Positions 6,509-63,899 are shown, counted from the whole stretch's first letter. The stretch is 63,899 bases of DNA, filler included, from Collodictyon triciliatum (GCA_043381765.1; 10 parts of 10 records of this genome joined end to end with filler, not necessarily neighbours in it), one strand, 5' to 3'. Translations and numbers: made by a program. Notes: generated from the sequence alone by a model not told the origin.

Positions 6509-6608
6509 NNNNNNNNNNNNNNNNNNNNNNNNNNNNNNNNNNNNNNNNNNNNTTAATTAATTAANNNNNNNNNNNNNNNNNNNNNNNNNNNNNNNNNNNN
6601 NNNNNNNN
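6509..6608. other. Artificial contig spacer (44N-TTAATTAATTAA-44N); also at 13121, 19732, 26342, 32950, 39559, 46164, 52768 and 59328
   Basis: Identical 100-bp linker with six-frame stops recurring about every 6.6 kb. Confidence 0.97.
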
Positions 6609-52767: not shown

Positions 52768-52965
52768 NNNNNNNNNNNNNNNNNNNNNNNNNNNNNNNNN
52801 NNNNNNNNNNNTTAATTAATTAANNNNNNNNNNNNNNNNNNNNNNNNNNNNNNNNNNNNNNNNNNNNGAAAAAAGAAGAGAAAAAAGAAAGGAAAAAAAA
52901 GAAAGGAAAAAAAAAAAAAGGAAAAAAAAAAAAGGAAAAAAAAAAAAAAGAAAAAAAAAAAAAAG

Positions 52966-53010
<45 letters not shown>

Positions 53011-53230
53011 AAAAAAAAAGAAAGGAAAAAAAAAAAGAAAGAAAGGAATTGAAAGAGAGACAAGTTCATGCATTAGCAATCCTGCCCTTGTCAATCTAAA
53101 ATTATTGCTTCTTGATTTCTATTTTCAACGAGTTACATAGTATATAATGGCGAAGATTTTTTCTTTTTTTTTGTATATAATGGCGAAGATATTCATATTT
53201 CTATTTAAATATATATATATATTCGAATAG

Positions 53231-56200
53231 ACTCGGCGGCCAAATCTATCCGAGGCTGAAAAAAGGCAGCTTGCACTCAACATATTTGCAGAGTATATCG
53301 ATACGGGTTCCCCCTATGAGGTCAACATACAACACAATCTACGTTCCGCTATGCAAGCAAAGCTTCAAAATCCAATATCGTTGGACATTTTCGATAAGGC
53401 CCAGGTGACTTTACTTTTGAATCCTTGACAGATGTTCTACTTGCTCCATTTATAATGAGCGAAACACACAGCGTATATTGAAAATTTGAATACCAACAGA
53501 AATATATTTTTTTTCCTCCTTTATTCGATTCAAGCGAAGGAAGGGTTTGTTTTTTTGATTTTTTCTTTAACCAACATAAATATCTTAATATTTTCAAACA
53601 GAGAGAAGTTCTTCAATTACTGCACAACAATTCGTACGAGCGATTTATAAAGAGCATAGAATATCAGGTAAGAGTATTATTTTTCAATTTACTAGGCTAA
53701 AACGGACTTAGTTCAGGTTCTTTAGCAATTCATATACAATATGTTGAAATCAGGACTTTGTGGAAAAATATAAAACCATGCCGCAATTTTATCTCTTGGA
53801 TTCTGAAAAGAGAAAAAAGGACGAAAAGTACCGATTATTATAGATTTATCATTACAAAGTATTGAATAATGTAGCGACGTAATGATATGTATCGTATCTA
53901 TGAGGGTGATAGTTTAAAACAGAATTCATACAGGATGCGAGAAAAATATAAACTTCCTTCTACCCAACACTTGATTGTGAAATATGCCTGCGCGATGGAT
54001 AACAAAGGAATGCTATTTCACGGCTCCATGGTTCTATCAAATTTGTATATTTGTTTCAACGCTGCGGTATTTGGATTCAAAACAAAAGAGGTTTCTTGTT
54101 GATAGATTTAGATTAAAGTTTTTTCTTTTCGGAGTATGATTATTTAATTCACCACATTTTATGGCAAATTTTTGTATTTCGAGGTATTTTATAACTGGTT
54201 TCTTATTCAATGTGGATGTGTTTTTATGCCTCTTCTAAATACATTTCGTAGGTTATACCTCTTCGGAAAATCACGAATATTGATTTACATTTGGACAACC
54301 CTTCCATTTTTGACTCTGACGGACACATTAAAGTATTCATTTTAGCATAAACCTAAATATGCCAATTATGCCAATATTTAGTTTTGATAACCTTTCCCTT
54401 GCTATTATGTGCCGAGCTAACTGATAATACTTCATAGATAATTTACAAGGATAAAGCATTTATTTTTCGGGCATTCCCATACGTTCAGAGGGTACTTTAT
54501 CTGCTGCTCAATTTGTGTTATCTTTTTGTCTGTTCCTGATAAATTTTCCCGGGAGATTGTTTCATTTCATCCTTTTCTTCTTCTGGCGAATGCGACATTA
54601 TTGAAGAATGATATCTATTAAATAACCACAGTAAAAATTGCAAGTTCCTTACAAACCAATTTTTATTACCTTTTGACAAAATACCTAGGCGTATTTAATG
54701 ATTCGAAAACTACACCACTTCTCTTTGAAAACGCTGGATTCAATCCCCGTAGACGAGCGATTGAATAGTGCTCGAGGAGAGCCAGAAAAAGGTCAACACC
54801 AATAATAATTTTTTTTTATAAATTTTATGCATCATAGGTTTGTTGATTGGGGTAGCTCACTTTTTTTTTTTTGTTGCTTCACTCTTCAACAGATCCATAT
54901 ACGCTGACTGAAAGGGATTGGCTATTATTCCAAGAAGGAGCTAAAGTAATGGCTTTCTCGAAAGACACAGCCATATTAAAACAGGTAGAGTCTTTATCTT
55001 ATAACTAAAATTATGTTGTTTTTATTGAGCTTTTTTTTTTTTTTTGAAAAGTAGTTCCATGCGCTCAACGATTTTCTTAATGTACTCTCAGGGTGACAAA
55101 TGTAGAAACTTGTATCAAATCGCCAGAGGGCGTGTACGAGTAGAGAAAGGCGGAGAAATACTTAGGACAATGGATGAAGGTAATATTTTGGCTCGTTCAT
55201 ACATCTTATACCTAAAGGCATACTGAAATTTACATAACACATTTTTCTGATACTTAGGCTTTCATTACGTGGTTTTCTTTTACACAGGTCAGTTCTTTGG
55301 TGAGATATCCTTTCTCGAGGGTGTGCCTGCGAGTGCCACTGTCCTGGCTGATGAAAATCCTACATCAGTTTATATCATCGACGGACAGTTCATTGAAAGT
55401 GATTGGAAATGAGAAAATATCTAGTTATTATTACGCTTTGTAGACATTCAAAAGTCGGACTTTTTTTTTTTTTTTGCATGGTTTGAGTATACATCTTAAA
55501 GATATTGACATTTCCTGATTGCATGCAGAGCTATTCAAGATTCAGCCGACTTTGACAGGTCGATTCTACAATTTTCTTGCCACACAGCTTTCTGATCGGC
55601 TGAGAAATAGGAAAGTAAGTGTCAGCGTGTACCATCCCAGAGTATCCCATGTAAACATAAGTCCTTTACAATCATTCAGCAACGCCTGAAATTTTCTACA
55701 TGGATATTCTAATTGAACTTATCCTTGACTGCTTTTTTTTTTTAAGGTATCTGTGGCGAGTATCCCAGCCGAGCATTTCCACTTTATGGCAGCGGATCGA
55801 TTCCAAAAAATGCTCAACTTCGGAAAGGAAGAAGACTTGATATTATGTTTGTATAGAAAATTACATGTCCTCATGTAGCCTTTTTTTCTTCTTCTATTTA
55901 CCATCGTCGCATCTAACTATCATTATTTTTATTTTTACTTTTAATAAATTATTTCCCTCATTACTCATTCATTAGCGATTCCGTGTTCCTTGGAAAAATT
56001 CATACGCCAAACTGGATATCTTTATGTCTCCACAAATTATCTATCCTTCTCTGCTCAAATTATCGGCATGAAGACAAAGGTTCGCTTCGCTTGATTACAA
56101 AATCACACCATCATATCTTAGAATCGAATAAAGGGAAAGAAAAATTTATACCACCTTTCGATAAAACGGACACTTTTTAAATCTAAAACTCAAAACTATC

Positions 56201-57860
56201 AAAAATGGCAAATTACCTCAGTTTTTTTTCTCTCATGAATTTTTTTCCTTTATTCGATTCAAAACTGCTCTTTTTTCTCTCAGGAAATATTGCCCATGAA
56301 GTCGATCTCCACGATAACGGCCAACGAGTCAACCATCGAAGTAACTACAGAAGACGACCGAGAAGTACTTTATTATTGATTTCATTATCATTATTTCGTC
56401 CTCGTCCATCTTTTCCACAATTATTTTCATATTCAGGAAGAGGGTTACCTTGCATGAGAAATATATTCCCCATCCCATTCTGGGTTTCCCTCTCTTTTCT
56501 TCATGTAATTTATGCGATGACATTGGTGACTCTGGGTTGTCTCTTTCATATCCATAGTACATCTTTACAAATATGGAGAACGTGAAGGAAGCCTACGAAA
56601 AAATATTGGGTGCGTGGAGGGTTATCAAGGTAGTGATTTATATATTATTGATGCCATTTTGCAAGAAAAAAAAAGCAACTGTGAATCTACATTTCAATAT
56701 ATTTTCAACCTTTTTACTCAAGCTATTTTATTATCCTCTTTTTCATTTACTGCATCTTACCCCGGTTAATCCTTTTTTTTTTATATTTTTTTTTATCAAT
56801 TTAGAAATAATATCATGTTTTTTTTTTTCAACAAACAAATAAACTCGCAGGAATATATTTGTTTCAGCGATATTTGCAACAGCACACTAACCAAGCCATG
56901 CAATTCGACTTTATCACCCAATCACCCATAGGCAAATCGAAATCTAATGCACCGCGGAATTCGCCCCATCGAGCAAGGGAAAAGTGCGTCCAAGGCCGAT
57001 GAAAAAGTCAAGGACAACCTCGAACTGGTGAGCCTCTGAGTCTCATATCTATTCTGATTGTTAAGAAATGCCCCGCCGACGATTCCAAACAGCACTTCTG
57101 CTGCTGTTCCATCCTTTACATCCTTTCCCATCACTCTTTCTCTCCACGAGATGAGCTTGTAAACCACCACCAAAGATTGCCACCTTGTGTTTTCATCAGT
57201 GTGTCACAATTCAATCTAGAATATGAAAGTATTCCACGCTGGTGCAAAACTCGTCACATACTCTCGTGATGACATGATACTGGAGGACGGCAGGTAGAAC
57301 ACATCATCCTCTATACTTTCTTTCTGCATACATGAATCATGAGTCAGGAAAACAGATATGAAAGCACGGCAAAAAAAAAAAAAAAAAACCTCTGAGCAAA
57401 AAACCCCATTTGAAAGCCGCACGCGCTGCCTGTATCAAATCAACAAAGGCCAGGTGCGAGTGCAAAAGGGCATCGGCTCCGAAGCCGTCATCTTCCGTAA
57501 GTTGGGGCCGGGGCAGATTTTCGGGGAGATGTCCTTCTTGGAGCCGATTGCCGCATCAGCTTCCATCGTTGCAGACGAAGTACTTTCACACTTCCCGAGT
57601 GTCGGTTTTGCAGACGAGCATACATAATGTTTATTTGTACTTTTTCCGTCTTCTCTTTTCTTTTCTATTTCTTAATTCATGAAACTGCCGTGCATCCTGT
57701 GCTTTGCTGAATGCAAATCAAATGATGCCGCCAGGACCATGTCGAGGTCTTTGTCATGGAGCGGGCTTATGTGGAATCGCTGCTGCGGATGGACCCCGAA
57801 CTCCCCGGCCGCTTCTACCGCTTCTTGGCCATGAACCTCGCATATCGACTCCGGAAATAA
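53231..57860 (+). CDS. RGS-GRAM-cNMP-GRAM-cNMP multidomain signalling protein, multi-exon, 5' partial
   Basis: RGS: IFAEYIDTGSPYEVNI, IFDKAQ, NSYERFIKS. GRAM: HGSMVLSNLYICF and GYLYVSTNYLSF. cNMP: LYQIARGRVRVE / FFGEISFLEGVPASATV and LYQINKGQVRVQ / IFGEMSFLEPIAASASI. Stop at 57858-57860. Confidence 0.8.
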
Positions 57861-58049
57861 TATTATTGAATGAATAATAAACTAGCAAACTTCTCCTCTC
57901 TCTTTCCGTTCGTTCTATCGCTCCCTTTTCTGGGCACGATTGGAACTTGTCTTTGCTTCGTTTCTCTCGTCTTCGGTTTCGGTCTCGGTTTTGTTTTTGT
58001 TTCTGTCGCTCGTGAGGAACGAACATTCTGGATGAATCGGGCGTAGAAA

Positions 58050-58168
58050 TACCCACAAAACCCCACCAAAAAAAACCCCACCAAAAAAACCCCACCAAAA
58101 ACCCCCCACCAAAAAAACCCCACCAAAAAACCCCACCAAAAAACCCCACCAAAAAACCCCCCACAAAA
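58050..58168. repeat. (AAAAAACCCCACC)n minisatellite just upstream of the UBL gene
   Basis: About nine imperfect units read directly. Confidence 0.9.
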
Positions 58169-58189
58169 CAACTGTTAGGTGATTCACAC

Positions 58190-59192
58190 ATGTCGGGCGA
58201 TCAGGTCAAGATCCAAATCAAATGCCTCGAATCCGCCAATATTCAGCTGGAGGTACCTCGCAACGTGAGTGGTTTCCTTTCTATATTCTGCTTAACTAAC
58301 TCTACACTTCTGCGGTTCATTTTTAACAAGCCGATCGACTTTATCCTGCCCTCAGATCTCTGTCCCAGAGTTGAAGAGGCTGATCCATGAAAAGTCTGGA
58401 ATCCCTGTGCAGACGCAAAGACTGATTTTCCGAGGCCGAGTTCTCAAAGACACTCAGGACCTAACTGCTTTTCGTGCGTATATTGCTCTTTGGGACATAT
58501 ACAATTCAATAAGCCTATGTCATGCATACTTCTGGACATACTTTTTCCATGTGATTGTATATATTTGAACCTTTAACATCCTCTGGTAAAAATGCAAACA
58601 CCGAAAATCAGAAATCGAAGATGGAACCACTTTGCATCTTGTTACACGTCCTCCAGAAGCAGATACACCGGCTCCTTCTGCTTCTGCTTCTGCTTCGCCA
58701 TCTGCATCAGCAAATACTCGTCAAGTGCCCAACCCTGCACAGTACCAGCCAACTCATCCCCACAACGCACACCCTCGTAAGTTGTCACATGCACAGTCAT
58801 CCATCATTGATGCCATGAATTAATTCTTGGCCGGTGCATGACCTAATTATTCACGTTAATATGCTGCTCATGTCTTCAGATGTATTTTTGTATTGTATTA
58901 TACATATATTTGCAGTTATCTGTAAAAGTTCCTAACTCAAGCTTGTAGTGCCTTAATGAATAACACATATATTACATACAAATTGCGCATTTTAGCTCGC
59001 TGATTTCTTCCTCCTCCTACCATATCCTTTTTTCTTCTTTCTCTATTAGCCCATCCGCAGTTTACTTATATGCCAGTACCTGGCGGTCTTCCCGGAATGA
59101 TGATGGGCACTGTGCAAATACCGGACAACGGAAATCCTGATATCAACCAAATCATGAGTTCAGTACTTCAATCTGTCGGCCTCGGAAATATG
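58190..59192 (+). CDS. N-terminal ubiquitin-like domain protein (BAG6/CIP73-like), 3' truncated
   Basis: VKIQIKCL, ELKRLIHEKSGIPVQTQRLIFRGRVLKD and IEDGTTLHLVTRPP, then a Pro/Ser-rich linker and MMMGTV...DINQIMSSVL. Confidence 0.72.
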
Positions 59193-59227
59193 GTTCCATT
59201 TATTCTGATCCACCCTCCATAGAAATT

Positions 59228-59327
59228 AAAATAAACCAAATAAACCAAATAAACCAAATAAACCAAATAAACCAAATAAACCAAATAAACCAAATAAACC
59301 AAATAAACCAAATAAACCAAATAAACC
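59228..59327. repeat. (AAATAAACC)n repeat at contig end
   Basis: Direct reading. Confidence 0.95.
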
Positions 59328-59427: not shown

Positions 59428-59520
59428 GTAGTAATTTGGCTTTCAGCTAATCGCGTTTTTTAGTGGCCAAGCCAGCAGCAGGAACAATATTCCCCAAACT
59501 GCGTTAAGCCCCAGAACGTT
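59428..59520 (+). repeat. attC-like site, family A, copy 1 (3' half; contig starts inside it)
   Basis: Ends CCCAAACTGCGTTAAGCCCCAGAACGTT with GTT at 59518-59520. Confidence 0.88.
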
Positions 59521-59535
59521 AGCGGCAACCTTAAT

Positions 59536-60459
59536 ATGACAAACCCTCCTAGAAACCACCACTACGTGCCTCAATGTTATTTGAATTCTTTTACAAACTC
59601 CCAAAAGAAATTTTGGAAGATGCGTATTGATAATAATAGGATTTCAGAAACTATGCCTGTTAAGGTCTGCTATGAAATTGATTCAAATCGATTTAGAAAC
59701 AAGCAATTACTAGAAATAAATAATCTTGACGATGAATATTTCATCGAAAAACACTCCTTTAAAATTCAGGAAAATAATTTTAGTAAAGCTCTTCATGAAT
59801 TAATCAAGTTCAAAAAAGAGCAAATAATAATTGATAAAACAAGGCACCAAATTTTTCTTGAAACACTGGTTACTATAAAGAGAAGGAATCCCGATTCAAG
59901 AAACAAAATAATTCAAGTTTTTAAGGAAAGCTATCAAACTCAGGAGGGCATTCAAAAATTTTTAGAATTTTTTTTAGAAGAATCGGGCAATCAAAAGATT
60001 ACTCCAGAGATCAAAATTAATATAAAGAATTTTCTTGCAAACGAGTCACAGGATCCCAATCGTCTTCATGATATGTATCTTAGTGCTTACTTGAACAAGG
60101 TCGATTATACAACGATTGCCAATATAACCCGTGATTTCTATCATTTAAAGCAATATATACTCCATACTCCTATAGGTCAACAGTTTATAACTTCAGACAA
60201 TCCCGGTTTTACATTAGCGGGCAATACAATCATTAGTCTTGGCGGTTTAGGAGGTCGATTTGAATTTTATTTTCCGCTTTCGCCAACAACCTGTCTTTAT
60301 CTGAAATCAACAGATATAGAGCAAACCGATGCTATCGAAAAAATAATATATCCAGTGATGATTAACAAGTCTGACGTAACCCAAATCAATAAAGCAACAA
60401 AATCAATAAGCATGAAAAATGTTTTTGCTTATAATAAGGAAACACTAGAAAAATTGTAG
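59536..60459 (+). CDS. DUF4238 domain protein (cassette 1)
   Basis: N-terminal HHYVPQCYL, FITSDNP and YFPLSP motifs; 307 aa, intronless. Confidence 0.85.
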   Translation: MTNPPRNHHYVPQCYLNSFTNSQKKFWKMRIDNNRISETMPVKVCYEIDSNRFRNKQLLEINNLDDEYFIEKHSFKIQENNFSKALHELIKFKKEQIIIDKTRHQIFLETLVTIKRRNPDSRNKIIQVFKESYQTQEGIQKFLEFFLEESGNQKITPEIKINIKNFLANESQDPNRLHDMYLSAYLNKVDYTTIANITRDFYHLKQYILHTPIGQQFITSDNPGFTLAGNTIISLGGLGGRFEFYFPLSPTTCLYLKSTDIEQTDAIEKIIYPVMINKSDVTQINKATKSISMKNVFAYNKETLEKL

Positions 60460-60468
60460 GCAGCCGCT

Positions 60469-60627
60469 AACAATAGGCTTTACGCAATTTGGGTTTCAGT
60501 AATGGCCAATCAGCTTTGGTAGTGCTAATCAACTGTAGTAATTTGGCTTTCAGCTAATCGCGTTTTTTAGTGGCCAAGCCGGCAGCAGGAACAATATTCC
60601 CCAAACTGCGTTAAGCCCCAGAACGTT
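60469..60627 (+). repeat. attC-like site, family A, copy 2 (159 bp from AAC to GTT)
   Basis: AACAATAGGCTTTACGCAATTTGGG...CCCAAACTGCGTTAAGCCCCAGAACGTT; arms 15/17 complementary. Confidence 0.9.
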
Positions 60628-60639
60628 GTGCGCAATTTT

Positions 60640-61257
60640 ATGAACCCTGTACGTTTAGAAGATACTATAAAATTTTTGAAGGATAATATCGATCCACTTG
60701 AAGATATTGCATATGGTCCTGGCTATAGAGCTTCAGTATTTTTATTAGATGGTACATATTTGCCATGCGTCATTTTCCGAAATTCTAAAACAATAATTGA
60801 CTTAGCTATAAATCGGTTTAAAAAAGAGCAGACAGCCAACAATTTATTTCAAAGGTTTTCAAATCGTAAATATAGAGAAGCTGTAAAGACATTTGTTGCT
60901 AGTGGTAATAGTATAAAACTTAGTGATATTGGAAAGGTCCAAAAAAGTCGTTTTGCTTTTCCAATAAGTATCCACAATCAAATAAAGGGAGAAACTGCAA
61001 TGAGTTGGACTGCATTTGTTGCAAAATTCAAAGATGGAAGATTCCTTAGTTTTGGTACAACTTGGAATTGGGAATTTTTTGATTTGCCTGAAAATTATCT
61101 TGTAGAGGATATTATTGAAATAATAAATCATAGCTATATAACAAAAACAGGCGAGATTATTCGACACGGATCTATAGATAGGGCACTTCAATGGGATAAA
61201 TTAGAAACAATTCATAGACCACGTCAATTTTTTGATTGTTATTTAGATCATTTGTAA
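60640..61257 (+). CDS. Hypothetical protein (cassette 2), 205 aa
   Basis: ORF fills the cassette; ATG 60640 preferred over GTG 60628, which lies inside the recombination core. Confidence 0.8.
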   Translation: MNPVRLEDTIKFLKDNIDPLEDIAYGPGYRASVFLLDGTYLPCVIFRNSKTIIDLAINRFKKEQTANNLFQRFSNRKYREAVKTFVASGNSIKLSDIGKVQKSRFAFPISIHNQIKGETAMSWTAFVAKFKDGRFLSFGTTWNWEFFDLPENYLVEDIIEIINHSYITKTGEIIRHGSIDRALQWDKLETIHRPRQFFDCYLDHL

Positions 61258-61289
61258 CATGACTTAAATGAAAATATAATACTGCGCAC

Positions 61290-61448
61290 AACAATAGGCT
61301 TTACGCAATTTGGGTTTTAGCAATGGCCCATCAGCTTTGGTAGTGCTAATCAACTGTAGTAATTTGGCTTTCAGCTAATCGCGTTTTTTAGTGGCCAAGC
61401 CAGCAGCAGGAACAACTTTCCCCAAACTGCGTTAAGCCCCAGAACGTT
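61290..61448 (+). repeat. attC-like site, family A, copy 3 (159 bp)
   Basis: Same arms as copy 2, with a few central substitutions. Confidence 0.9.
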
Positions 61449-61474
61449 AGCTGTAATTTTTAAATAGAATCTGT

Positions 61475-62326
61475 ATGAAAAACCTCTTAGTATTTCTTAC
61501 TACAATTATTTCTTTTAATTCTTTGTCTCAAACAGTAAGCAAATCAAAATATGGAGACAATTCTTCAATAGGAAAATATGCAAACATTAGAGGGATTAAA
61601 ATGTATTATGAAATATATGGGACAGGAGAACCTATATTGTTAATTCATGGTAACAGCGGCTCCATAACTGACATGACTAATCAAATTGAATATTTTTCTA
61701 AGAAATACAAAGTCATTGTTGCGGATAGCCGAGATCATGGCAAAACATTAGACACATTGAGTATGACTGACACACTGAGTTATGAGATGATGGCTGATGA
61801 CTATAATTCTTTATTAGATTTTTTACAAGTTGACTCTGTTAATGTTATTGGTTGGAGTGATGGAGGCATAAATGGACTTTTATTAGCCATGAATCATCCG
61901 AGAAAAGTGAAAAAACTTGTGTCAATGGGAGCAAACCTTTGGTCTGACACAACTGCGCTTGATCCATTCTTTCATAACATTTTCAAGATGCAATATTCAA
62001 TGATGCAAAAAAGACCAATGACAACTGAAAATAAGGTCATTCTTAGACACTATAAATTAATTATGACACAACCTAATATTTCGACGCAACAATTAAAGAA
62101 AATTAAGTGCCCTACATTGGTTGTAGCTGGCGACCATGATGCTGTTAAAGTTCAACATACAGCACTAATTGCTCAAAGCATACCTAATTCAAATTTATGG
62201 ATAGCGCCAAATGCTGGACATGGATTAATGGTATTTCAATATAAAGACAAATTTAACACAGAGGTCGAGGACTTTTTTAATAGAAAGTTTAAGAAGATTC
62301 AAGGATACGATATGTTCAAAAACTAA
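61475..62326 (+). CDS. Secreted alpha/beta hydrolase (cassette 3)
   Basis: Signal-peptide-like N-terminus, LLIHGN, GWSDGG nucleophile elbow, GDHD and AGH. Confidence 0.9.
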   Translation: MKNLLVFLTTIISFNSLSQTVSKSKYGDNSSIGKYANIRGIKMYYEIYGTGEPILLIHGNSGSITDMTNQIEYFSKKYKVIVADSRDHGKTLDTLSMTDTLSYEMMADDYNSLLDFLQVDSVNVIGWSDGGINGLLLAMNHPRKVKKLVSMGANLWSDTTALDPFFHNIFKMQYSMMQKRPMTTENKVILRHYKLIMTQPNISTQQLKKIKCPTLVVAGDHDAVKVQHTALIAQSIPNSNLWIAPNAGHGLMVFQYKDKFNTEVEDFFNRKFKKIQGYDMFKN

Positions 62327-62336
62327 AACTACAGCT

Positions 62337-62495
62337 AACAATAGGCTTTACGCAATTTGGGTTTCAGCAATGGCCCTTCAGCTTTGGTAGTACTAATCAA
62401 CTGAAGTAATTTGGCTTTCAGCTAATCGCGTTTTTTATTGGCCAAGCCAGCAGCAGGAACAATATTTCCCAAACTGCGTTAAGCCCCAGAACGTT
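62337..62495 (+). repeat. attC-like site, family A, copy 4 (159 bp)
   Basis: Same arms as copy 2. Confidence 0.9.
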
Positions 62496-62685
62496 ATCAG
62501 CTACTCAGCTGCGGCGCAGATCCCGGCTGTGGGTTTGGTTACCTTGGGCAAAAGAGCGAATGATTATTCAAGGCGGCTTTAATCAACCCAGCTATTGAAC
62601 AAGGCTGAACAGGATAGCAGTATTATTAATGGAGTCTCTAATAATTTCTAGAGAGCGATTAATATAAATTCAATGAGCAGCTTAT
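62496..62685. other. ORF-less cassette 4, 190-bp unique region with several inverted repeats (candidate ncRNA)
   Basis: Ends GTTATCAGCTACTCA / TGAGCAGCTTATAAC complementary at 13/15; no ORF of 60 aa or more; internal stems. Confidence 0.7.
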
Positions 62686-62844
62686 AACAATAGGCTTTAC
62701 GCAATTTGGGTTTCATCAATGGCCCATCAGCTTTGGTAGTGCTAATCAACTGTAGTAATTTGGCTTTCAGCTAATCGCGTTTTTTAGTGGCCAAGCCAGC
62801 AGCAGGAACAACTTTCCCCAAACTGCGTTAAGCCCCAGAACGTT
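62686..62844 (+). repeat. attC-like site, family A, copy 5 (159 bp)
   Basis: Same arms as copy 2. Confidence 0.9.
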
Positions 62845-62856
62845 GTACGAAATTCT

Positions 62857-63537
62857 ATGAAAGACCCTAAAAATATATTGGCTTTTTTTATCCCATATTT
62901 AACCATATGTGGGGTTCTCTACAATCTAGCTTTTTGGGAAACATTTGGACTTAATGGACTAGAACATATTGATATTTCTAAAATAATTCAATCCTCAATT
63001 TACCCAATTTATTCATCATTATTTTTCATCATAATTCTTATTTATAGCCGACTTGAAAAACACTTGGTTGAAACAGTCGACATAAATGGTACTAATATTG
63101 TTTTTTCAAAAACATGGAAACGAAATTTATTTTTTATTATTTGGGCCATAGCTTCTACTATTATCTATCAGCATGACTTTATGCCATTCCGATGGCAGGC
63201 TTTTAGCTTTGTTGTTTCGTTAATGCCTACTATTCAAATTTTTGAAACCAAAATACTTATAAAAACTTTTCCTAAAAACTTATCTAGATTGTATATAATA
63301 TTTATAGTATGTTTTGGTATATCAATATCATACGGCTCTGGTAAATATCAAAGTGAATTAATTTTTAGCAACAAAAAATATAAATACATAATCAGTAATC
63401 CATCTAACCTAAAAAGCGACACTTTAAAACTTATTGGATCATCTGATAAAGATTTTTTCTTTACAGACATAAATAATCGAAAAACAATTATAATAAAAGA
63501 AAGAATGATTGATACGTTGATTTTATTTGACAAATAA
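62857..63537 (+). CDS. Hypothetical integral membrane protein (cassette 5)
   Basis: 226-aa ORF with about five hydrophobic segments filling the cassette. Confidence 0.8.
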   Translation: MKDPKNILAFFIPYLTICGVLYNLAFWETFGLNGLEHIDISKIIQSSIYPIYSSLFFIIILIYSRLEKHLVETVDINGTNIVFSKTWKRNLFFIIWAIASTIIYQHDFMPFRWQAFSFVVSLMPTIQIFETKILIKTFPKNLSRLYIIFIVCFGISISYGSGKYQSELIFSNKKYKYIISNPSNLKSDTLKLIGSSDKDFFFTDINNRKTIIIKERMIDTLILFDK

Positions 63538-63548
63538 TAACTTCGTAC

Positions 63549-63738
63549 AACAAAAGGTTTGGCGTTATGTCTGCTTGACGAATTAATCATCAACAACAAA
63601 TCGCTAATCAACTGTTGTTCTCAGCTTACCTTACGCTATTGGGCTGACAATTTTTACAATCAACTAATTATCTTTACTCAACACCAGTTCCAAGCTTGAC
63701 AGAACGCTATGCAGCCACAACGCCAAGCCTCGAACGTT
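63549..63738 (+). repeat. attC-like site, family B (190 bp, different sequence, same architecture)
   Basis: AACAAAAGGTTTGGCGTTATGTCTGC...GCAGCCACAACGCCAAGCCTCGAACGTT; arms 16/19 complementary. Confidence 0.82.
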
Positions 63739-63761
63739 GCCTGCAATATTAAACAACTGGT

Positions 63762-63899
63762 ATGAGAATTTTCCTAATAGTCTTTCTACTTCCCCTTCTT
63801 TCACATGGGCAAATAATTTACAAAGCCAAAATCATAAGTTCAACAACAAAGCAAAGTGTTCCTTATGCGACAGTCGCTTTATTGAGAGCAAATATTGGA
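63762..63899 (+). CDS. Secreted protein with carboxypeptidase-regulatory-like domain (cassette 6), runs off window
   Basis: MRIFLIVFLLPLLSHGQIIYKAKIISSTTKQSVPYATVALLRANIG: signal peptide plus the G.I.D..T..P.PYATV-type start common in Bacteroidota. Confidence 0.65.
   Translation, partial: MRIFLIVFLLPLLSHGQIIYKAKIISSTTKQSVPYATVALLRANIG

Follow-up and report, generated by a model that had tools for sequence, protein, structure and literature searches.

The window analysed here, a stretch of 63,899 nucleotides (nt), filler included, taken from the Collodictyon triciliatum assembly GCA_043381765.1, ends in a bacterial contig (59428–63899, + strand) that carries five complete gene cassettes and the start of a sixth, separated by attC-like repeats. 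We consider it probable, with a confidence of about 0.6, that this contig is part of a cassette array, an integron-like element of a Chitinophagaceae-like bacterium, whose folded single-stranded sites are marked by mismatches instead of bulges. Each cassette ends in an imperfect palindrome of 120–190 nt of shared anatomy: an outer arm comprises 10 bp counted from the AAC/GTT triplet, a non-Watson–Crick position 11 and about four more bp, and is separated by an unpaired asymmetric spacer from an inner arm of 11–12 bp that closes with a second A·C 15–16 nt after AAC, beyond which lies a variable distal part.

The contig consists of short co-oriented open reading frames (ORFs), all on the + strand, with repeats of 159–190 nt between them that all open with AAC and close with GTT, the sequence outside these triplets varying from unit to unit. 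It opens with the right half of a family 1 site, which is truncated at the edge of the contig and has GTT as its end (59428–59520). Cassette 1 (59518–60471, GTT to AAC; ORF 59536–60459) is followed by site 1 (60469–60627, family 1, 159 nt from AAC to GTT), cassette 2 (60625–61292; ORF to 61257), site 2 (61290–61448, family 1), cassette 3 (61446–62339; ORF 61475–62326), site 3 (62337–62495, family 1), cassette 4 (62493–62688), site 4 (62686–62844, family 1), cassette 5 (62842–63551; ORF 62857–63537), site 5 (63549–63738, family 2, 190 nt) and the start of cassette 6 (63736–63899), which runs off the window. The cassette borders are thus defined by the G of GTT at 59518, 60625, 61446, 62493, 62842 and 63736 and by AAC at 60469, 61290, 62337, 62686 and 63549. 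Pfam families were recognized in the ORFs of cassettes 1 (DUF4238) and 3 (alpha/beta hydrolase), the other three ORFs of the contig, including those of cassettes 2 and 5, having none. Cassette 4 measures only 196 nt (349 nt as a unit with its site) and contains no + strand ORF of at least 40 amino acids (aa); it still has full arms including the A·C pair.

In all five complete cassettes the start pairs with the cassette's own end over 9–10 bp, an A then stands opposite a C at position 11 (59528/60461, 60635/61282, 61456/62329, 62503/62678 and 62852/63541), and pairing resumes beyond it. The first-pass annotation had described this A opposite C in every complete cassette, with overall pairing of 12/14, 15/17, 14/15, 13/15 and 12/13, and an A at the same position of cassette 6; re-pairing each cassette start against its end returned the same counts and the same mismatch in five of five, and the A of cassette 6 is located at 63746. 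These cassettes were checked by hand, as the automatic set contained only three of the five, one having been split by a false site in the hydrolase ORF.

Within the repeats, the A·C mismatch that had been placed 16 nt after AAC in both repeat families was likewise seen in five of five sites (60487/60606, 61308/61427, 62355/62474, 62704/62823 and 63567/63718), and each inner arm contains one more non-Watson–Crick pair, not mentioned in the first-pass annotation: family 1 has T·T at +10, family 2 has T·G at +7. DNA minimum-energy folds of the sites circularised in silico reproduced the proposed stem-loop-stem with an asymmetric loop, but not its sizes: instead of 5 versus 8 or 7 nt, the top-strand loop measured 4 versus 7 nt in family 1 and 3 versus 5 nt in family 2, a count that depends on the closing pairs. 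The statement that no single-base bulge is present was correct for the window, whose folds show 1 × 1 mismatches only, but it does not extend to all relatives, as one extra base beside the A·C occurs in 18–21 of the 97 related cassettes described below.

Related genomes were reached via homologues of the window hydrolase. The exact 20-base text of the family-1 site found no match in the genome contig collection; it matched one metagenome contig of 1456 nt, in which the cassette also has A·C at position 11. A family-1 profile yielded scattered copies, and 25 of 401 Chitinophagaceae genomes contained family-1-like repeats. Most related sites escaped simple text patterns, which were dropped as a site finder in favour of a structure-based detector; the locus of the best hydrolase homologue (L002, from a Sediminibacterium metagenome-assembled genome, MAG) carries other repeats, not this site type, and was rejected as an array relative. 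In three related loci that were read, borders and mismatches were the same, and a gene for a tyrosine recombinase lay close by. The detector evaluates only AAC, GTT and an ungapped inner stem, the outer stem being invisible to it. Some sites escape it and a few of its calls are false; across 1.32 Mb of unrelated loci its background amounted to 0.21 sites per 10 kb.

A first set of 26 locus strands provided 105 sites and 78 unique intervals between neighbouring sites, of which 59 passed a filter on pairing at positions 4–10 and 19 were dropped. In the ungapped register, position 11 was never a Watson–Crick pair (0 of 59), being A·C in 49 cassettes, A·G in 8 and A·A in 2. On the near side of it, positions 4–7 were paired in 59, 59, 57 and 59 of the 59 cassettes, and on the far side positions 12–15 in 49, 52, 47 and 39. 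When the ends were dealt to other cassettes, the corresponding values dropped to 29.6, 25.8, 20.3 and 16.7 and to 29.8, 19.9, 19.5 and 29.9, respectively, and the arms therefore covary cassette by cassette across a position 11 that is itself never paired. From position 16 onward, pairing was at chance level.

The set was enlarged by 12 loci from a phylum-wide sample, in which the recombinase is only 35–50% identical, and then comprised 157 sites and 121 unique intervals; the filter, applied here to positions 4–9, retained 97 cassettes in 23 loci. Position 11 was A in all 97 and faced C in 93, of which 69 were ungapped, 6 showed no clear pairing beyond and 18 had one extra base alongside, usually an A at position 10 of the AAC-side arm. 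The inner A·C at +15/+16 was found in 130 of 154 unique sites, and a second A·C at +12/+13 in 49 of these 154. Conservation of the mismatch positions in a larger alignment had been set beforehand as the test of the first-pass annotation, and both positions proved conserved. The unpaired spacer was equally regular, measuring 2–4 nt on the left in 150 of 154 sites and 4–7 nt on the right in 147. Sites fell into two main size classes of about 123 and about 187 nt, both found within single arrays, and their distal parts shared no single conserved motif. Many of the long sites (L115, L154, L157 and 63549–63738 of the window) have a GGCTGAC-like text immediately interior to each inner arm, repeated in direct and not in inverted orientation; no motif is common to all sites. 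Solitary copies of the site away from arrays were also observed, as in G135 C4.

Both A·C pairs become G·T wobbles on the bottom strand, and A·C/C·A mismatches in the inner arms numbered 208 on the top strand versus 71 on the bottom strand. Circularised sites folded better than their dinucleotide shuffles (mean z −4.0; z below −2 in 23 of 24), and the more stable strand was the bottom one in 46 of 59, with equality in 2 and a mean advantage of 2.7 kcal/mol for the bottom strand.

The related arrays are located directly downstream of a tyrosine recombinase gene and are co-oriented with it. In genome G104, a recombinase of 377 aa is followed by two small genes and then by six cassettes, all on one strand; this full-length protein was used as the reference, and those of L092 (276 aa) and G135 (apparently N-terminally truncated) were left out. 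Same-strand sites were present in 17 of 20 loci fetched downstream of recombinase homologues, arrays reached up to 22 sites (in G413), and in 10 loci the GTT of the first cassette lay 67–241 nt behind the recombinase gene, after a similar attI-like text ending in GA/GTT, the slash marking the border. Homologues at E 1e-40 or better were detected in 180 of the 401 Chitinophagaceae genomes sampled, many of them at contig ends with the gene pointing outward, and, with the threshold set at E 1e-60, 49 of 401 genomes of a phylum-wide sample contained homologues; the family amounts to 2383 cluster representatives at E 1e-30 or better. The catalytic residues R, K, H, R, H and Y were invariant in 40 homologues.

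This recombinase stays below the NCBIfam cut-offs for XerA (189.6 bits, cut-off 220), XerC (164.5, cut-off 335) and XerD (159.4, cut-off 330), and its match to the IntI model TIGR02249 reaches 164.3 bits (cut-off 265) and is broken in two, with model positions 178–241 left out; the relatives' recombinases scored 144–164 bits with positions ∼178–241 unmatched. Its best sequence matches in the PDB were XerA (1e-31) and VchIntIA (1e-26), and in the alignment with the latter (2a3v), query residues 97–262 correspond to 13–178 and 291–362 to 247–318, leaving 28 residues where VchIntIA has 68 (residues 179–246), i.e. about 40 fewer. In published work on VchIntIA, the extrahelical bases are described as held by Q145, W157, K209, Y210, W219 and P232, H240, H241 (PMC3053210); six of these eight named contact residues (K209, Y210, W219, P232, H240 and H241) fall within the segment that the recombinase is missing. 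The AlphaFold model (predicted local distance difference test, pLDDT, 86.4) likewise shows no helix at 268–288, hence no extra helix at the place of the IntI segment. Placing the enzyme nearer to XerA or to IntI was attempted and abandoned, as neither fold nor sequence comparison could separate the two, Foldseek ranking XerA and IntI4 level (7e-16 versus 2e-15). The interpretation given in the first-pass annotation is partly supported, its divergent recombinase having found a counterpart: in related genomes, arrays of the same anatomy adjoin an Xer-like recombinase without most of the IntI-specific segment.

Several features of these recombinase loci were recorded in addition. Residues 1–60 of recombinase P0121 (L117 7132–7311, − strand) form an extra beta-rich N-terminal domain that is confidently modelled, contains conserved S40 and W46, has no Pfam match and is joined by a disordered linker (64–77). 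The G135 recombinase (L114 16987–17721) seems to be without the N-terminal part and starts right after the terminator of an upstream NifU-like gene; it still heads an array of more than 20 sites. In G009 (L092 700–2128), a second, shorter tyrosine recombinase of 276 aa without N-terminal extension lies downstream of a site, and the stretch ahead of it is flanked by an inverted repeat of about 16 nt and might represent an insertion. In G104 and G403, the space from the recombinase to the attI-like junction holds a DUF4160 gene and a helix-turn-helix (HTH) gene (L117 5416–6209, − strand, and also L154), which could represent a toxin–antitoxin-like pair or platform regulators.

Canonical integrases provided a comparison within the same phylum. 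Of the 401 genomes in the phylum sample, 113 contained TIGR02249-type genes above the cut-off, and three of eight such loci that were fetched (L203/G523, L204/G436 and L208/G584) carry arrays divergent from the gene. The sites beside these canonical IntI genes have two to three extra bases in the left arm (two sites of L204, four of L208; L203 by eye), and position 11 of the GTT arm of their cassettes is A in none of four and Watson–Crick paired in two of four. In a gapped scan of ten arrays behind the Xer-like enzyme, by contrast, 54 of 63 sites had no extra base, six had one on the left, two had one on the right and one had two. From this contrast between the arrays of the two enzyme types it follows that bulged sites accompany the enzyme that has the IntI segment, and mismatch-marked sites the one that does not. 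Canonical IntI genes are also far commoner in Bacteroidota (113/401 genomes) than the near-absence reported for complete genomes in 2022. The IntegronFinder survey of that year records almost no integrons in Bacteroidetes; only In0 had been seen in this group earlier, and one complete integron, in Salinibacter ruber, was recorded in 2022 (PMC9024848), and Bacteroidota figure elsewhere among the phyla listed with integrons (PMC8618304).

Taken as an integron-like element, the system could operate as follows. On the folded bottom strand, the recombinase would bind the two ∼11 bp arms in the way that Xer proteins bind those of dif, and would cut at the AAC/GTT triplet; as in integrons, the attI-like site would receive new cassettes, and excision would take place between sites. 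The fixed non-Watson–Crick pairs at the outer edge of each arm may do the job of the bulged bases of attC, in that they would make the strands unequal, with a stable G·T on one and A·C on the other, and would give the protein a positional mark. On a wider scale, these arrays might represent a widespread, so far unrecognised second kind of integron in Bacteroidota, in which an Xer-like recombinase without the IntI insertion captures and shuffles cassettes and reads G·T/A·C marks at fixed positions where IntI reads bulged bases, either as an independent invention or as a pre-IntI form; we put this forward tentatively, at somewhat less than even odds.

Several observations weigh against the integron-like reading. 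The window itself contains no recombinase gene, and the link to a recombinase therefore rests on other genomes, whose sites are 70–85% like family 1 of the window or alike in anatomy only. Three of the 20 recombinase loci were without any site, and 24 of the 121 intervals of the enlarged set were lost to the filter on positions 4–9. The inner A·C was missing in 24 of 154 sites, some of which are perhaps false sites, and a T·G at +6/+7, equivalent to A·C on the bottom strand, was present in 61 of 154, so that the asymmetry is not all one way. The top strand was the more stable one in 11 of 59 circularised sites. Folded in its array context, with arms from two different cassettes, the bottom strand of site 1 (60455–60642), the only site folded in this way, was unexceptional (z −0.21; 71 of 200 shuffles folded at least as well); a site may be a far better substrate in an excised circle than when resident in the array. 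Finally, 10 of the 49 phylum-sample genomes with an Xer-like recombinase also carry a TIGR02249-type gene elsewhere, and help in trans would be possible there.

Three other explanations have to be weighed. With arrays and recombinase as described, the A·C/G·T pairs might be purely thermodynamic in function, keeping the bottom hairpin intact while weakening hairpins of top-strand DNA and cassette mRNA. Such a role would fit the partner of the position-11 A, which in 93 of 97 cassettes is C, the transition-type partner that leaves a wobble on the other strand, as well as the excess of inner-arm A·C/C·A on the top strand and the greater stability of the bottom strand. Energy alone, however, needs no fixed place, yet the A occupies position 11 in every cassette of the enlarged set and the inner A·C recurs at +15/+16; moreover, the exceptions at position 11 (A·G and A·A) keep the A and are unpaired on both strands, and the T·G at +6/+7 acts in the opposite direction. 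We therefore rate this explanation as unlikely, at something like one chance in four, and the most serious of the three.

It is much less probable that the repeats belong to a divergent subfamily of ordinary attC sites on which a canonical IntI acts in trans, the neighbouring Xer-like gene being unrelated. The AAC/GTT triplets, the R and L arms, the polarity of the spacer and the cassette borders are all as in attC, and canonical integrase genes reach the cut-off in 113 of the 401 phylum-sample genomes. Yet no gene over the IntI cut-off was present in any of ten Chitinophagaceae genomes checked, including the site-bearing G104, G135, G009, G269 and G096, of which G104 and G135 have full arrays, and no TIGR02249-type gene at E 1e-45 was found in G413; the Xer-like gene lies 67–241 nt ahead of the first cassette in the 10 loci mentioned, and the arrays of canonical IntI are bulged and without A·C at position 11. 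Least probable of all, and very improbable in our view, are double-stranded dif-like sites with half-sites that differ at position 11, or dispersed palindromes or terminators, even if the solitary copies off arrays, the unexceptional fold in array context and the equal closeness of the enzyme to Xer and IntI would accommodate them. Arms 120–190 nt apart that covary per cassette are not what a double-strand crossover yields; besides, contigs contain or lack cassettes as complete units bounded at GTT, and arrays of up to 22 units begin at one fixed junction behind the recombinase.

Signs of cassette mobility came from contigs of four public runs that match the window. In run X5, the match of one contig to cassette 3 begins precisely at 61446, the G of GTT, which confirms this border, and attI-like text as in L193 stands ahead of it; a second X5 contig passes from site 3 into site 4 with the 349 nt unit of cassette 4 absent; and contigs of runs X1–X3 depart from the window sequence close to the triplets, a few bases past GTT or ahead of AAC. 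These comparisons use assembled contigs and show presence, not absence, so that a lack of cover over parts of the stretch, as in runs X2, X3 and X5, does not mean that those parts are missing. Joints that go back at repeated sites were also noticed in X1 and X3, one of them joining 62503 to 60461, and could be artefacts of assembly at repeats. Of the contig's sampled words, 77% occur in one public run; nineteen others, mostly lake water metagenomes, hold 14–19%, shares that are no evidence of habitat.

As to the origin of the contig, the window is a chain of about 10 contigs joined by N44-TTAATTAATTAA-N44 linkers (window 6509–59427, at 6553, 13165, 19776, 26386, 32994, 39603, 46208, 52812 and 59372), the last of which directly precedes the array. 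Look-alikes of the hydrolase (ORF3) are mostly from Bacteroidota, the nearest named relative being the Sediminibacterium MAG with 77% identity, and Sediminibacterium belongs to the Chitinophagaceae; the protein is present at 99–100% identity on 30 and 104 public contigs. The contig preceding the array (52868–59327) looks eukaryotic, with split coding pieces, and the bacterial array is therefore probably a contaminant or an associate in another organism's assembly. That preceding contig also contains a C/A-rich simple tandem repeat with a CCCCACCAAAAAA-like unit (58053–58170) and a second one, (AAATAAACC)n, which extends into the linker (59226–59327). The curated covariance models of Rfam 15 had no match on 59428–63899 at E up to 0.1.

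Compared with known systems, the arrays resemble classical integrons (IntI, attI and attC; 2A3V) in their tandem single-ORF cassettes, their imperfect palindromes bounded by AAC and GTT with the border at GTT, their R and L arms around an unpaired spacer whose AAC side is shorter than its GTT side (the same polarity was seen in the canonical array of L203), the position of a tyrosine recombinase next to the first cassette and the presence of toxin–antitoxin cassettes. They differ in that the recombinase of the related arrays is without some 40 residues of the IntI-specific segment and remains below the TIGR02249 cut-off (164 versus 265 bits), that most sites have no extra base in the L arm (54/63) and carry the fixed A·C at position 11 and +15/+16 instead, that the outer arm extends over 15 positions versus 7, and that the gene is co-oriented with the cassettes. 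Taken alone, the contig of the window, a 4.5 kb fragment, amounts to clustered sites with no integrase gene, but its relatives do have a recombinase.

In integrons of the Treponema denticola type, the integrase is oriented as the cassettes are, and the arrays described here share this placement of recombinase and cassettes on one strand; the Treponema enzymes are true IntI proteins with the additional domain. XerC and XerD act on the folded single-stranded attP of CTX phage, and with this case and with Xer/dif in general the arrays have in common an Xer-type enzyme without the IntI insertion, two ∼11 bp arms and an unpaired centre. Unlike Xer/dif, with its single double-stranded 28 bp site per replicon, they comprise up to 22 sites per array with arms 120–190 nt apart, and their dedicated recombinase has an extra N-terminal domain and scores below the XerA, XerC and XerD cut-offs; further recombinase genes of Xer size occur elsewhere in the genomes checked.

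In published work, the IntI-specific domain and the bulged bases of attC are presented as what lets a tyrosine recombinase use folded single strands (PMC4792948, PMC3053210), and a preprint on Archaea treats the additional domain as defining IntI. Our search of the literature, confined to one collection of papers, found no published description of cassette arrays with a domain-less recombinase or of A·C/G·T marks in attC. The arrays described here combine an integron-like cassette logic with the absence of both the IntI-specific domain and the bulges, for which a simple, countable substitute is found instead. If the system is active, the requirement for the IntI-specific domain would become directly testable, a second natural set of structure-specific sites would be available, and a large pool of cassettes would come to light that searches based on the IntI domain or on classical attC sites would presumably not report as integrons.

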